Shown here: piece after piece, positions 19,065 through 25,471 of the stretch | Layout of the letters: each line of letters begins with the position of its first letter | Numbering within the stretch: the stretch's first letter is position 1 | From: an uncultured archaeon | GTDB taxonomy: Archaea; Aenigmatarchaeota; Aenigmatarchaeia; CG10238-14; SCSR01 | NCBI GenBank assembly: GCA_964400475.1 | Contig: CAYNTH010000004.1 | Span: 1-56,364 of the forward strand | Direction: 5' to 3' | Length of the DNA: 56,364 nucleotides | Program-made: the position numbers and the translations under genes | Notes under the pieces: model-generated | What the model saw: only the letters and a program-made list of their open reading frames with translations | What the model was told of the DNA's origin: nothing | Database searches by the model: none

Positions 19065-19799
19065 CTATATCTCTATTTTACTTTCTTTACCCCTTAATTT
19101 GATTATCCTGGCGTTTTCTTTTGTCTTTTTGACTTTTACAGTATCCCCGGTTCTCAGTGGTATCATCGTGGTATTGTTATCAGCACACATAAGCCCGGGA
19201 CCACGCTTGATAGAAACTTTAACCGTATCTTCTGGCTTGGCATGTTTGTAATTCATTATCTCTCCGGTTTTTATCGATTTGGTATTGTTGAATGCTATAC
19301 CTATTCCATTTGAAAATTTACGGCCAACTATCGTATGATAATATGCTGTGCTTCCATAAGGCGTTGCTATTATCACACCATCACCAATTAACCCATTCTC
19401 AGAAGATTTTCCGTCAACGAATAAATCATATCTGATGGCCTTTGTCGGAAATGCGTGCGCAACGTTAATCTCATTCAGACCGACCAATTTTCTATGTTTA
19501 TCATCGTTCACTATACCTTCCAATTTCATCTTCTCGATAACACTATATTTTCCATTTTTCAATTTTTTGAGTATCTTAGATAAACTGTGACTGCCGGCCT
19601 CGCATTTTTCACAATGTTTGCTATGTTTTATCGTCAATCTGGGTATACCTGGATATAGCTGCTCTGCAAAAAGTGCGGAACCATCACCGCCATAAGAAAC
19701 CACTAAATTTGGATTTATCTTATCTATATCGAATCCCTCGTGTTTCAGCTCCCCTTCAATGACCTTCGTATCTACTCCTATTACAGCAACTTTCTTCAT
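19065..19799 (-). CDS. NAD(+) kinase
   Basis: GGDG, LNE, DGVIIATPYGSTAY motifs. Confidence 0.92.
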   Translation of the reverse strand: MKKVAVIGVDTKVIEGELKHEGFDIDKINPNLVVSYGGDGSALFAEQLYPGIPRLTIKHSKHCEKCEAGSHSLSKILKKLKNGKYSVIEKMKLEGIVNDDKHRKLVGLNEINVAHAFPTKAIRYDLFVDGKSSENGLIGDGVIIATPYGSTAYYHTIVGRKFSNGIGIAFNNTKSIKTGEIMNYKHAKPEDTVKVSIKRGPGLMCADNNTTMIPLRTGDTVKVKKTKENARIIKLRGKESKIEI

Positions 19800-19853
19800 A
19801 ATAAATAGATAGTAATCATTAAACTTATCTTTATCCCACAGAATAGAAAAAGG

Positions 19854-20978
19854 TCATCTGTTCTTCATAGCTTCCCGGACTCTTTCCTTGGCTATTTCCA
19901 ATGCGGCTGCTCTAGGATATTTGGACTCCTTTTTAGATTTCTCCAACACGAGTTTGGTATTTTTTCTCACACGATTTTCAACTTCTTTAAACATCATGTC
20001 ATTATCGCCCTCTATATATTCAACGTAAGATGAGATGACCCCGCCAGCATTCGCAACAAAATCGGGAATTACCAGGATATCGTTCTCATGCAACTTCTTC
20101 TCTACATCATCTGGTATAGGGATATTGGCACCTTCTACGATAATCTTCGCTTTTACATCACGCCAATTTTCATCAGTGATGACATCGGATAACGCTGCGG
20201 GTATGAGAACATCAACAGGAAGTTCAAATATCTCATCAGTACCAAGAACCTCACCGTCATCATAATTCTTTACTGCACCAGTGTCATCCTTGACTTTTCT
20301 CAATCTATCGAAATCCAACCCGTCTTTATTATAAATAGTACCCTTACTGTCACTAACTGCGACAACATTCGCGCCTGCTTCCGAAAGGAATTTAACGGCA
20401 AAACTTCCGACATTACCGAATCCTTCAACAGCAACTTTAACATCACCAACGTCCATACCCAAATGATCCAGTGCAATAAGTGTCGCATGATAAACACCGA
20501 ATCCCGTAGATCCCAATTCATGCGGTATGCCGCCCATATTTTCTGGTTTGCCCGTACAGGATTTCATAGAACCATTTTCATCAGCGAACCACTTCATCTC
20601 ATTTTCCCCTGTGTTAACATCAGGTGCAGCTACCCAAACATTGGGTGCAACTATCTTCGCCAATCGTGAATACGCTCTGACCAATGCCTCCTTATTCTCT
20701 TTCTGGTCCTTTGAATATACTATGGCACCCTTTGCACCGCCAAACGGAAGTTCGGCCAATGCACATTTCCAAGTCATTGTCCGCGCCAGTCTAAAATCCT
20801 CGTGCAGTGTTACAGAAGAAGTCATTCGAATTCCACCTTTCCCAGGACCCAGAGCAGTATTGTCTATTACAACAAATCCATCCATACCGGTTTCAGGGTC
20901 ATAAAGATTTATCAAATATTCCGGTCCCCACTCATCATGTTCTATTTTTTCATCCATTGTATCAACATCCTTTTTCAT
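19854..20978 (-). CDS. gdhA: Glu/Leu/Phe/Val dehydrogenase, most likely glutamate dehydrogenase
   Basis: GPGKGGIR, MTWK, PFGGAKG, APDVNT, GFGNVG, EGANIP, PDFVANAGGV. Confidence 0.88.
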   Translation of the reverse strand: MKKDVDTMDEKIEHDEWGPEYLINLYDPETGMDGFVVIDNTALGPGKGGIRMTSSVTLHEDFRLARTMTWKCALAELPFGGAKGAIVYSKDQKENKEALVRAYSRLAKIVAPNVWVAAPDVNTGENEMKWFADENGSMKSCTGKPENMGGIPHELGSTGFGVYHATLIALDHLGMDVGDVKVAVEGFGNVGSFAVKFLSEAGANVVAVSDSKGTIYNKDGLDFDRLRKVKDDTGAVKNYDDGEVLGTDEIFELPVDVLIPAALSDVITDENWRDVKAKIIVEGANIPIPDDVEKKLHENDILVIPDFVANAGGVISSYVEYIEGDNDMMFKEVENRVRKNTKLVLEKSKKESKYPRAAALEIAKERVREAMKNR

Positions 20979-20991
20979 AAATTGTACGTTG

Positions 20992-23124: not shown

Positions 23125-23136
23125 TGAATCACAATA

Positions 23137-24189
23137 TCAGCATTGGGCATCGGATAGAGTATTACCGGCACCGGCACCTATCGCCCCGAATGATGGTTCT
23201 TCAGCTGTACTACTTAGAGATTGCTCGCATTCTTCTGGAGGATTGTTGAATGCATTACATATCGCTTCCTTTATAGATTCGGCCGACCTGGATACACTCA
23301 CTCTCTCACCATTCAATATGAATGTGGGTGAACCGCTTATCGAATATTGTTCATTTAGCTCGTTCTCCACTGGATAAGGTGGATAAACCCCGTTTCTCCA
23401 CGTAGATTCGTCGTTATACAACTCGGTTATACCGTATGTCTCATCCAAAGAATCCATACATGAAACGACTCCATCTACGTCTATACCGACTTCTTCCATA
23501 CAACCGTCGTAATCACCTTCTACCACAAAACATCTCAGATATTCTGTAAATTCCTCCGGTTGTTCTTTCTGTATACAATACATCCTACTATTTTCTTGGA
23601 TTTCATCTTCGCCATGCATTATGTAATTAACGAAGTTTACATCTAGATTCGCTTCATCGCCTAGAAGCTCAATTACTGGTATATACGCTTTCAGAAACTG
23701 TAATCCATATGGACAATACGACATTACAAATGCGTGGGCCTCGGGAGTATCGGTCTTCGGTACCTCTGTAGGCACCTGTTCAACATCATCTTGAGAATTG
23801 TCGATCACATTCTCGTCCTCTGTATCAACCGGTTCTGATAGGAAAAGCCATCTCCCGTCCTTAGTAATATAAACATCTATTTCACTGCCCTGATAACTCG
23901 TCGTTACCTTGTACATACCATTGATAGTTTCCTCGCTTGACACATATTCGGCCCCACCATCTTGTACAAGGTTTGTATTTATATAATCTATTGACTTAGT
24001 ACCCGCTTCATCTGCATTCAATCCAACAGCTGAAAAATATCCACATATCGGTGAATTACCGATTATCTGTGGTCGGACAAGCAGCACCAAACTCAATGCT
24101 ATAAAAACGAACGATGCCATCATCCAGACTCTTTCTTTAGAAAAATCTATATCAGGAATCTTTATTGTGAATGTTTTTTTCTTTGCCAT
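23137..24189 (-). CDS. Membrane-anchored DsbA/thioredoxin-like protein (CPYG)
   Basis: N-terminal TM, FVMSYCPYG, cis-Pro loop SGSPTFILNG, additional paired Cys. Confidence 0.75.
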   Translation of the reverse strand: MAKKKTFTIKIPDIDFSKERVWMMASFVFIALSLVLLVRPQIIGNSPICGYFSAVGLNADEAGTKSIDYINTNLVQDGGAEYVSSEETINGMYKVTTSYQGSEIDVYITKDGRWLFLSEPVDTEDENVIDNSQDDVEQVPTEVPKTDTPEAHAFVMSYCPYGLQFLKAYIPVIELLGDEANLDVNFVNYIMHGEDEIQENSRMYCIQKEQPEEFTEYLRCFVVEGDYDGCMEEVGIDVDGVVSCMDSLDETYGITELYNDESTWRNGVYPPYPVENELNEQYSISGSPTFILNGERVSVSRSAESIKEAICNAFNNPPEECEQSLSSTAEEPSFGAIGAGAGNTLSDAQC

Positions 24190-24250
24190 CTAAACCACTA
24201 TAAAATTTTACAATTCGTTACTTTTAAATTATACACCCTCACTTAAAAAT

Positions 24251-25471
24251 CTATATCAACTGTGATATCTCCTTCAACTTCTCCACGAACAATTCCACTT
24301 CCTCTTCGGTGTTGTACGCGTATAGAGATGCCCTTGCCGAACCGTTCATCGCATGTGCATTGAACCACGAATGCACACAATGCGCGCCCGATCTTATCAT
24401 TATATTCGATATGTCGTCCAGCATTATCGCTATATCGTGCGGGAATATACCATCGATTGTGAACGAAATTATGCCTCCCCTTAATTCGGGATCAGCTGGT
24501 CCTATTATCTCAAGGCCCTTTATGTCTCGTATACCATCGGTTATGATATTATTCAATTTGATTTCGTGTTTGTTGATATTGTCCAGTCCTATTCCTTCGA
24601 GATAATCAACAGCCGCTGCCAACCCGATAGCACCCGCATAATTCTGGAGACCTGCCTCGAATTTCTCCGGCGGATTCATCATCACACAAGAATCATATGT
24701 GGTATTCTTAACAGTGTCCCCTCCTATGAGAAACGGACTCATGCTGTCCAGTAATTCGTACTTACCATACAATACACCGATGCCGCTCGGTCCCATCATC
24801 TTGTGACCGGAAAATGCGAGGAAATCTATATCTTGTTTATCAACATCTATCGACTTGTGAGGTACGCTCTGTGCACCATCGACCAAAACAATCGCACCAG
24901 CATCATGTGTTATTTTTATGATATCGTCCAAAGGCAATGTATAACCATCTAAATTAGAAGTGTGGACCATTGACACCAATTTCAATCTATCTCCTGCCAT
25001 GTCAACCCTCCTTTCGAATTCGGCTAAATCGAACGTCATATCTTCTTTTGAATATATTATCTCGTGTCCGATTCCTTTCTTATCCGACAATAATTGCCAC
25101 GGCAACAAATTGGAATTGTGTTCCCTGTCGGTTGTTATAACCACATCACCCTTTTCGAAATCAAGCGAATTGGCAACCAGATTTATGCTCTCAGTGGTGT
25201 TCCTAGTGAAAACGACCTCATTCTGGTCGTCCGTTCCTATGAATTTTCCAATCCGTTCACGGGAATTATCATAGTTCTCGGTCACCATCTCCCCTATTTT
25301 GTGTGCACTTCTGCCAGCACAGCCAGGATATTTGTAATAATATTCGTTCATCGATTCCACGACTTGATTAGGTCGCAGGGACATACATGCATTGTCGAAA
25401 TAGACTATCTTCTTTCCATTTATTCCTTCATTCAAAACAGGGAAATCGCTTCTTATCTTTCCTATATCCAT
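24251..25471 (-). CDS. sufS: Cysteine desulfurase (SufS/CsdA type)
   Basis: VYFDNA, EHNSN, DGAQS, FSGHK, RSGAHC. Confidence 0.92.
   Translation of the reverse strand: MDIGKIRSDFPVLNEGINGKKIVYFDNACMSLRPNQVVESMNEYYYKYPGCAGRSAHKIGEMVTENYDNSRERIGKFIGTDDQNEVVFTRNTTESINLVANSLDFEKGDVVITTDREHNSNLLPWQLLSDKKGIGHEIIYSKEDMTFDLAEFERRVDMAGDRLKLVSMVHTSNLDGYTLPLDDIIKITHDAGAIVLVDGAQSVPHKSIDVDKQDIDFLAFSGHKMMGPSGIGVLYGKYELLDSMSPFLIGGDTVKNTTYDSCVMMNPPEKFEAGLQNYAGAIGLAAAVDYLEGIGLDNINKHEIKLNNIITDGIRDIKGLEIIGPADPELRGGIISFTIDGIFPHDIAIMLDDISNIMIRSGAHCVHSWFNAHAMNGSARASLYAYNTEEEVELFVEKLKEISQLI

Follow-up and report, generated by a model that had tools for sequence, protein, structure and literature searches.

A membrane module of two helices and five cysteines, linked to a cysteine desulfurase and to exported thioredoxin-fold proteins, in an uncultured aenigmatarchaeon

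The DNA described here is a stretch of 56,364 nucleotides (nt) from an uncultured archaeon of the Aenigmatarchaeota (GenBank assembly GCA_964400475.1, contig CAYNTH010000004.1, positions 1 to 56,364 of the forward strand), referred to as the window throughout. It carries a run of seven minus-strand genes at 19065-25471, in the middle of which lies an unannotated membrane protein of 118 amino acids (aa). "TM2C" is the name coined here for the unannotated two-helix, five-cysteine membrane family to which this protein belongs. The source genome measures 649 kb in 15 contigs, of which the window is contig C4, with a completeness of ~88% and with archaeal hallmarks present. An earlier reading of the run, made from the letters alone (the sequence-only reading), had proposed an NADPH-to-cell-surface thiol relay operon built around the 118-aa protein. 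The run contains the following features, listed from its first gene.

24251-25471, minus strand: SufS-type class-V aminotransferase (PF00266, 393 bits; TIGR01979, 446.8, just below the cut-off of 475.1)
23137-24189, minus strand: exported, N-terminally anchored DsbA/GILT-like thioredoxin-fold protein, 350 aa (profile matches)
22768-23124, minus strand: TM2C, a two-helix five-cysteine membrane module, 118 aa with six cysteines (family alignment, topology prediction)
22677-22767, minus strand: apparent decayed remnant of the Cys-rich C-terminal tail of TM2C (tblastn with the tails of relatives)
22264-22632, minus strand: exported, N-terminally anchored CGHC thioredoxin-like protein (TrxL), 122 aa (E 2.4e-16 to 3kp8)
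20992-22254, minus strand: fusion of glutaredoxin and thioredoxin reductase (Grx-TrxR; PF00462, 63.8 bits; PF07992, 160.8 bits)
19854-20978, minus strand: glutamate dehydrogenase (GDH) of the ELFV family, a neighbour only (PF00208, 203 bits)
19065-19799, minus strand: short NAD kinase (NADK)-like protein, a neighbour only (PF20143, 25.3 bits against a cut-off of 23.7)

Translations of the open reading frames (ORFs) and searches with Pfam and NCBIfam bore out all seven genes at the coordinates that the sequence-only reading had given. It had also described several spacings of about 10 nt, and the intergenic gaps were 61, 12, 135, 9, 13 and 54 nt, three of the six being of that size. TM2C is preceded at 12 nt by the DsbA-like gene and, before that, by SufS; the Trx-like gene follows it after 135 nt. 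In the SufS protein, the lysine motif for pyridoxal phosphate (FSGHK) and the catalytic cysteine motif (RSGAHC) were both readable.

Searches with the 118-aa protein gave no Pfam match (E <= 0.1) and no match to an NCBIfam model. Relatives were collected in a full scan of 1.84 billion representatives, which returned 309 representatives, and the window protein was aligned end to end with 168 of these. C30 and C40 were each conserved in 168, C102 in 165, C3 in 163 and C109 in 162; all five family cysteines are present in the window copy, five of whose six cysteines are thus invariant or nearly so. The family signature is C3, C30-x9-C40 and C102-x6-9-C109 (x6 in the window), arranged in a layout of a first transmembrane helix (TM1), a basic loop and a second helix (TM2). 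In the window protein TM1 covers residues 2-18 and TM2 residues 71-99. The mean count of lysine plus arginine was 13.9 in the loop between the helices (residues 19-72) versus 0.05 after TM2, and because of this bias the positive-inside rule predicts C30-x9-C40 to be cytoplasmic and C3, C102 and C109 to be outside. The presence of cysteines on both membrane faces, which the sequence-only reading had predicted, is therefore supported by the charge bias and also by the helix layout in AlphaFold2 (AF2) modelling. The AF2 model of a fused TM2C relative had a mean predicted local distance difference test (pLDDT) of 90.7 and a predicted template modelling score (pTM) of 0.83, with TM1 at residues 2-16, three loop helices and TM2 at 71-99. 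Foldseek with this confident fused model returned DsbA-fold chains only, and the membrane module matched nothing. When modelled alone, the window protein reached a pLDDT of 66, which was too weak for a fold search.

TM2C did not fall into any of the canonical families of membrane partners. The models for VKOR (PF07884), DsbB (PF02600) and DsbD/CcdA (PF02683) gave no match to the protein, which has two helices only. VKOR has a core of four helices with a CxxC in the last of them and a cysteine pair in a loop, all facing outward, and TM2C is distinguished from it by its two helices, by the absence of a CxxC and by having two of its five invariant cysteines in a basic, presumably cytoplasmic loop. 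Profile-profile comparison (hhalign) of TM2C with 11 VKORs from the same phylum returned a probability of 1.2%, that is, no homology. Remote homology to VKOR, DsbB or DsbD was rejected, as none was found with family models or, for VKOR, with hhalign. The family is undescribed, with members in DPANN archaea, in bacteria of the candidate phyla radiation (CPR) and in some Anaerolineae. A literature search found neither a description of the module nor the SufS-DsbA pairing, where absence is no proof of absence. For CPR bacteria, thiol-disulfide oxidoreductases and VKOR are only mentioned, including a VKOR beside a thiol-disulfide oxidoreductase (PMC6744442), and another study deals only with clostridial DsbA and VKOR (PMC12453122).

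Close relatives of the window protein are mostly 151-154 aa long and carry an extra Cys-rich tail (CGCEGVCLCDVETCQSPEYAACEGDCSCQREVCG), of which the window copy has no intact version. Remnants of this tail were located at 22677-22767 as three successive pieces in three frames, lying behind the TGA at 22768-22770 and two frameshifts, with several of the cysteines replaced. Judged from these remnants, the window gene appears to be a shortened copy whose Cys-rich tail has been pseudogenised. Recoding of the TGA at the gene end, as selenocysteine or glycine, was considered and ruled out, since the tail remnants are in three frames and have lost cysteines. The tail is dispensable, because it was lost in the window and in other lineages and is absent from the fusion forms described below.

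A divergent TM2C subfamily of ~120 aa was seen at loci L116-L124 (e.g. L116:8044-8406), with E ~1e-12 to the main profile. In this subfamily the outer end of helix 1 carries a CxxC (FCIPC) instead of the single C3, and the cytoplasmic C-x9-C and an outer C-x3-5-C are retained. Its members lie within ~1.2 kb of genes from a third, distant clade of class-V aminotransferases (support of 100 in the Shimodaira-Hasegawa-like approximate likelihood ratio test, SH-aLRT).

Both exported proteins that flank TM2C in the window are of types that occur fused to TM2C elsewhere. The 122-aa protein is a homolog of the Trx-like domain fused to Synechococcus VKOR (3kp8, E 2.4e-16, residues 45-122; 3kp9/4nv2, E 1.7e-15), and its CGHC aligns with the CPHC of 3kp8. 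The 350-aa protein as a single sequence gave weak Pfam matches below threshold, and was therefore compared as a 17-member profile, which matched BdbD (5.5e-7), Staphylococcus aureus DsbA (4e-6) and the TRX-like domain of plant VSR (4.5e-11). Among the members of its family, the Pfam DSBA model matches 9 of 17, and DSBA, GILT or VSR_TRX matches about half. Its membership in the DsbA family is supported by the profile, with a thioredoxin fold that has a helical insert. A catalytic CxxC is absent from the 350-aa family, in which a monothiol CP[YF]G is invariant in 18 of 18 sequences; the active site of the window protein is CPYG (C159), and C220, C230, C311, C321 and C350 are also invariant. The last of these is the very last residue of the protein and sits on a low-complexity Gly/Ala-rich tail. 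C350 could be a swinging resolving cysteine.

In about one third of the TM2C representatives, proteins of ~300 aa, a DsbA/Thioredoxin_4 domain with C[YF]xC follows the module; public records label these 'DsbA family protein' or 'thioredoxin domain-containing protein'. In further representatives TM2C is fused to a Trx-like domain, which in P0039 and P0024 is of the VKOR type, and the C-terminal domain of P0039 is 49% identical to the 122-aa protein of the window. The connection between the 118-aa protein and exported redoxins, suggested in the sequence-only reading from gene order, thus recurs across the family, many members of which are fusions with a DsbA-like or a VKOR-type Trx-like domain. 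In fusions with additional helices, the helices come in pairs, so that the redoxin stays on the C102 side. By Foldseek, the fused DsbA domain was closest to BdbD and Gram-positive DsbA, with a TM-score of 0.82 to BdbD (3eu3), normalised to the target.

TM2C was found in metagenome-assembled genomes labelled as Aenigmat-, Woese-, Nano-, Micr- and Diapherotrites archaea, and in 139 of the 371 genomes sampled from the window's phylum. Long contigs from CPR bacteria (Levyi-, Falkow-, Nomura-, Paceibacterota and Saccharibacteria) and from Anaerolineaceae also carried fusions with all five cysteines. For gene neighbourhoods, 60 TM2C loci from different genera were counted, with Grx/TrxR, GDH, NADK and ferredoxin genes scored within 8 kb, and 47 further loci were covered with 3-kb flanks. 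A SufS homolog was adjacent to TM2C on the same strand in 30 of the 60 loci and within 1.5 kb in 38, and it was found within 3 kb in 44 of the 47 further loci. At the loci from CPR bacteria and Anaerolineae (L170-L183, L207), SufS stops ~4 nt short of the TM2C-DsbA fusion gene. The strongest link of TM2C is therefore to SufS, its most conserved partner, which the sequence-only reading had listed merely as the first gene of the run. The conserved unit consists of four genes (SufS, the DsbA/GILT-like gene, TM2C and the VKOR-type TrxL), not seven. A single conserved operon of all seven genes was rejected, as only these four recur widely and NADK and GDH were present in 4 and 5 of the 60 loci, respectively.

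The association with SufS extended to presence and absence across genomes and to the phylogeny of the desulfurase. A SufS highly similar to that of the window was present in 84 of the 109 genomes with the main TM2C type versus 11 of the 232 genomes without any TM2C (odds ratio 64; the genomes are phylogenetically non-independent, so that the p-value overstates the case). In a quick maximum likelihood tree of SufS, the TM2C-linked sequences formed one clade with SH-aLRT 99 (37 archaeal, 14 bacterial and 3 slightly more distant sequences), inside which the window SufS was placed (SH-aLRT 99). Of the 14 bacterial sequences, 13 formed one clade nested inside the archaeal TM2C-linked clade, which suggests that the SufS-TM2C pair moved between domains as a unit. 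Paralogous, less similar SufS genes formed a separate clade (support 98) and had an IscU/SufU-like gene adjacent in 14 of 16 loci. Two desulfurase paralogs, each with its own small Cys-bearing partner, are the pattern that would be expected if the TM2C loop accepts sulfur from its SufS or otherwise partners it. At three loci of family f21 (L228, L229 and L234), a glutamate dehydrogenase gene lies <2 kb from the IscU-linked SufS pair, so that GDH is found next to the housekeeping desulfurase as well.

In the source genome itself, the window SufS is the only class-V aminotransferase that was found, and no SufBD scaffold and no SufE were detected. The window contains one further gene of relevance here.

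10726-11229, minus strand: NifU_N/IscU-type Fe-S scaffold, unlinked to SufS here (PF01592, 142 bits)

NCBIfam NifU/IscU models match this scaffold below their cut-offs. With a single SufS and an IscU-type scaffold, the window SufS must also serve the housekeeping assembly of iron-sulfur (Fe-S) clusters. A SufS dedicated to TM2C in this genome was thus ruled out.

Models for VKOR, DsbB and DsbD_TM gave no match in the whole 649-kb genome and did detect their targets in control genomes, which upholds the statement of the sequence-only reading that no canonical DsbB, VKOR or DsbD/CcdA partner is recognisable. As the cysteines are conserved and predicted on both faces and the family is tied to redoxins elsewhere, none of the observations that this reading had set as refuting it was made. 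Strong VKOR matches were obtained in 17 of the 371 related genomes, only one of which also had TM2C (Fisher p = 0.004), and within single genera VKOR was found in one genome and TM2C in another. Two of the weaker VKOR matches in TM2C-bearing genomes have in-frame stops; these (G068:C22:20625-20822 with one TAG, G190:C2:145786-146004 with two TAA) look like decaying VKOR genes. Of 15 VKOR loci, 9 had VKOR fused to, or next to, a protein of the Trx-like type that also accompanies TM2C, and none had an adjacent SufS. This exclusion pattern is the signature of a non-orthologous displacement, with TM2C and SufS in place of VKOR.

The need of this organism for disulfides was assessed on the cysteine content of its exported proteins. 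Two of them are encoded in the window, and their existence as Cys-rich surface proteins agrees with the sequence-only reading.

40401-41666, minus strand: Cys-rich surface protein with an N-terminal signal/anchor and a C-terminal anchor, 20 cysteines in the mature part, no Pfam match
51892-53949, minus strand: Cys-rich exported protein with a CARDB domain, 66 cysteines

Both are candidate substrates. In a parity test, 716 ORFs were sorted by a simple hydrophobicity classification. Of the mature exported proteins, 44 had an even number of cysteines and 22 an odd number (binomial p = 0.009), against 188 even and 237 odd among the cytoplasmic proteins. A bias towards even cysteine numbers is a classical indicator of extracytoplasmic disulfide formation. 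The genome encodes five exported proteins with 59-97 cysteines. Outside the window these are C11:7687-10629, C1:1-4198, C6:29772-32012 and C5:12294-15155, with 97, 92, 64 and 59 cysteines in the mature exported part. Such a cysteine load is extreme for a 650-kb genome.

The remaining genes of the run, which would supply NADPH and cytoplasmic thiols, face a block of plus-strand genes.

14559-19062, plus strand: context block of ribonucleotide reductase (RNR), a 102-aa membrane ORF, CobA and ferredoxin (Pfam)

The Grx-TrxR protein is a low-Mr thioredoxin reductase with an N-terminal glutaredoxin, according to family models and its CxxC motifs (CPYC and CANC), with TIGR01292 at 335.8 slightly below the cut-off of 343.45, and it is the only TrxR of the genome. 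Grx and TrxR form one fused gene in the window and at locus L001 and two adjacent genes at L002 (L002:6472-7691); the fusion is probably recent, because the genes are separate and adjacent in L002. The NAD kinase-like protein is a borderline case for PF20143, and the best NCBIfam NAD kinase model reached 66 bits versus a cut-off of 304. Among the 60 loci, Grx and/or TrxR genes were within 8 kb of TM2C in 17, GDH in 5 and NADK in 4, all of the GDH and NADK cases being in the window's own family. On the plus strand, the RNR gene (14559-17903) encodes 1114 aa versus ~700 aa in relatives and bears an intein-like insert, read from the translation only; the intein-free 704-aa ortholog at L001 is a class II B12-dependent NrdJ (TIGR02504, 748 bits versus a cut-off of 400). 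Further along the block lie a corrinoid adenosyltransferase of the CobA type (18260-18823) and, at 18871-19062, a 4Fe-4S ferredoxin. Elsewhere in the window, a 1247-aa ORF (46215-49958, plus strand) contains an intein-like stretch with LAGLIDADG-type motifs, likewise read from the translation only.

Class II RNRs are reduced by thioredoxin systems, and CobA makes the adenosylcobalamin cofactor and requires a low-potential reductant. The block of TrxR, RNR, CobA and ferredoxin is coherent on its own, because the RNR is thioredoxin-dependent and CobA supplies its cofactor and needs a reductant. Synteny of the RNR/CobA/ferredoxin genes and the NADK-GDH-TrxR block with the envelope module was seen in family f1 only, and in two other f1 members TM2C neighbours CobA and ferredoxin, in one of the two also the RNR, but not TrxR, GDH or NADK. 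NADK, GDH and Grx-TrxR fit better as the cell's general thioredoxin/NADPH system, matched to the adjacent RNR, CobA and ferredoxin. They may touch the cytoplasmic cysteines of TM2C, and they are not a conserved part of the unit. The NADPH-to-cell-surface relay operon of the sequence-only reading was not supported by these counts, with NADK and GDH confined to the window's family and the sole TrxR located beside the RNR.

The explanation that we favour, and to which we give about an even chance of being right, is that TM2C replaces VKOR/DsbB non-homologously as the membrane partner of exported DsbA-like and Trx-like proteins in oxidative folding, and that it is linked on the inside to SufS. The external C102/C109, together with C3, would exchange disulfides with the exported redoxins and so re-oxidise the DsbA-like and Trx-like proteins. 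The cytoplasmic C30-x9-C40 would be the contact point for SufS, as a persulfide or dithiol acceptor, and SufS with L-cysteine would substitute for the quinone of VKOR. The direction of the system, which the sequence-only reading had left open, leans tentatively towards disulfide formation rather than NADPH-driven reduction.

When a cysteine desulfurase turns over with a dithiol, the products are alanine, H2S and a disulfide. We tentatively propose, as a possible though doubtful extension, that SufS and TM2C form a quinone-free and oxygen-free disulfide generator, in which CPR bacteria and DPANN archaea would use L-cysteine as terminal electron acceptor for oxidative folding. The desulfurase would draw sulfur from L-cysteine, after which C30/C40 would either resolve the persulfide to a disulfide or carry the sulfane sulfur, with H2S being freed. 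The oxidising equivalent would then pass to the external C3/C102/C109, by an oligomeric serine-lined path or by membrane-permeant sulfane sulfur, and from these cysteines to the DsbA-like and Trx-like proteins. Estimated roughly from tabulated free energies, the Cys/(Ala + H2S) couple lies at ~ -100 mV, which would make L-cysteine feasible as an oxidant.

Several observations weigh against TM2C as the partner of an oxidative pathway. TM2C has two helices with its cysteine pairs on opposite faces, and there is no obvious path for exchange or electrons across ~30 Å; oxidative or reducing, every relay model is weakest at this membrane-crossing step. The exported 350-aa partner has a monothiol CPYG and not the CxxC of a classical oxidase, and ScsC is among the fold matches, DsbA-fold proteins serving reducing pathways too. 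The window SufS is not dedicated to TM2C, being the only desulfurase beside an IscU-type scaffold, and another gene lies between the two. The exclusion of VKOR rests on no more than 17 VKOR-positive genomes, in a sample with many incomplete genomes and without phylogenetic independence. The cytoplasmic Grx/TrxR genes near TM2C in 17 of the 60 loci would equally suit a reducing relay.

Such a relay, of a DsbD/CcdA-like kind, was the proposal of the sequence-only reading: electrons would pass from NADPH through Grx-TrxR to C30/C40 and on to the exported redoxins, which would be kept reduced as isomerases or reductases for Cys-rich surface proteins. We consider it unlikely. It would account for the spacing in the window, where Grx-TrxR follows the TrxL gene after 9 nt, and for the small cytoplasmic Grx and/or TrxR of the 17 loci; these loci come from at least nine families, and the Grx or TrxR often sits immediately upstream of the DsbA-like gene. 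The N-terminus of the 350-aa partner gives a weak DsbC_N/DsbG-like match, its monothiol suits mixed-disulfide chemistry, the DsbA-fold ScsC type operates in reducing pathways, and proteins with 59-97 cysteines would require isomerisation. Yet the NADPH-generating genes occur with TM2C in one family only (NADK 4/60, GDH 5/60), and the sole TrxR has an obvious client next door in the B12-dependent RNR. A reducing relay also leaves unexplained why TM2C is linked much more strongly, and across domains, to a dedicated SufS clade, and it is at odds with the fusion of TM2C to the partner types that VKOR oxidises and with the exclusion of VKOR, an oxidase; the organism would be left without a source of disulfides despite its even-cysteine bias. 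That TM2C is only a passive anchor or assembly factor for exported redoxins, with structural cysteines and a SufS gene order that reflects shared regulation by cysteine supply, is very improbable. Tethering by a single helix is common among exported redoxins, the AF2 confidence for stand-alone TM2C is low (pLDDT 66), and the sequence yields no catalytic mechanism. A tether, however, needs neither two helices, nor a conserved cytoplasmic domain of 54 residues, nor five invariant cysteines on both faces, and the redoxins of the window already have anchors of their own. Nor would one expect a tether to be inherited together with a dedicated SufS clade across domains, or to exclude VKOR.

Two further explanations give sulfur or metal the leading part. 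TM2C could bind a metal or an Fe-S cluster through C30/C40, perhaps as a dimer, and/or through its external cysteines, with SufS supplying the cofactor sulfur, and act as an envelope metal/redox sensor or buffer. The link to SufS, the metallothionein-like Cys-rich tail of close relatives, a ferredoxin gene within 8 kb of TM2C in 11 of the 60 loci and a source genome without detected SufBD scaffold or SufE all speak for this. It is nevertheless improbable in our view, as the tail is dispensable (lost here and in other lineages, absent from fusions), two cytoplasmic cysteines per chain are too few for a cluster unless the protein is oligomeric, and neither the obligatory fusion or adjacency to DsbA/Trx-like proteins nor the exclusion of VKOR is explained. 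Alternatively, SufS could load C30/C40 and TM2C pass sulfane sulfur outward, for metal-sulfide detoxification or surface persulfidation, with the redoxins as carriers. Here the pairing of SufS with TM2C would parallel that of the other SufS clade with IscU/SufU, and the cysteines on both faces and the Cys-rich tail would find a role; DsbA-like and VKOR-type Trx-like domains are not known sulfur carriers, however, and VKOR exclusion and even-cysteine bias favour disulfide formation, so that we regard sulfur export as highly unlikely.

As a membrane partner in oxidative folding, TM2C would resemble several known systems in part. VKOR with a Trx-like or DsbA partner (Synechococcus VKOR-Trx, 3kp9/4nv2; actinobacterial VKOR-MdbA; CPR VKOR, PMC6744442) has the same architectural position, N-terminal or adjacent to the same redoxin types, and cysteines at the outer membrane surface as in TM2C. 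TM2C differs in that it has two helices where VKOR has four or five, that its main family lacks a CxxC within a helix, and that it has an invariant cytoplasmic cysteine pair, a desulfurase link (SufS at 0/15 VKOR loci) and no apparent quinone site. In DsbB-DsbA of Escherichia coli and BdbC-BdbD of Bacillus subtilis, a membrane partner likewise serves a DsbA-fold oxidase, but DsbB has four helices with all four essential cysteines outside and uses quinone, and the DsbB model matches neither TM2C nor the genome. DsbD, CcdA and ScsB link thiol systems of the cytoplasm to exported proteins of the thioredoxin fold, and TM2C has cytoplasm-facing cysteines and recurrent Grx/TrxR neighbours; those proteins, however, have six or more helices with two catalytic cysteines within the membrane (in DsbD/CcdA inside helices 1 and 4), no detected homology to TM2C, partners usually of the DsbC, CcmG and TlpA types, and no desulfurase link. 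The pairs of SufS with SufE, SufU or CsdE share with SufS-TM2C the arrangement of a type II desulfurase gene beside a small Cys-bearing partner. TM2C differs from these partners as an integral membrane protein that is tied to exported redoxins and not to Fe-S scaffolds, and sulfur transfer to it is putative.

In the window, the module, both redoxins and SufS are present as separate small genes. The recognition of the module corrects the annotation of thousands of public 'DsbA family proteins', which have an unrecognised N-terminal TM2C domain. A large part of microbial diversity belongs to CPR bacteria and DPANN archaea, which as a rule have neither respiratory chains nor quinone synthesis and yet display Cys-rich surface proteins and pili. 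TM2C would bear on how disulfides are formed outside these cells. If the explanation favoured here is true, TM2C and the desulfurase inherited with it would add a third solution to the enzymes linked to quinones (DsbB, VKOR) and those linked to flavins (Ero1, Erv).

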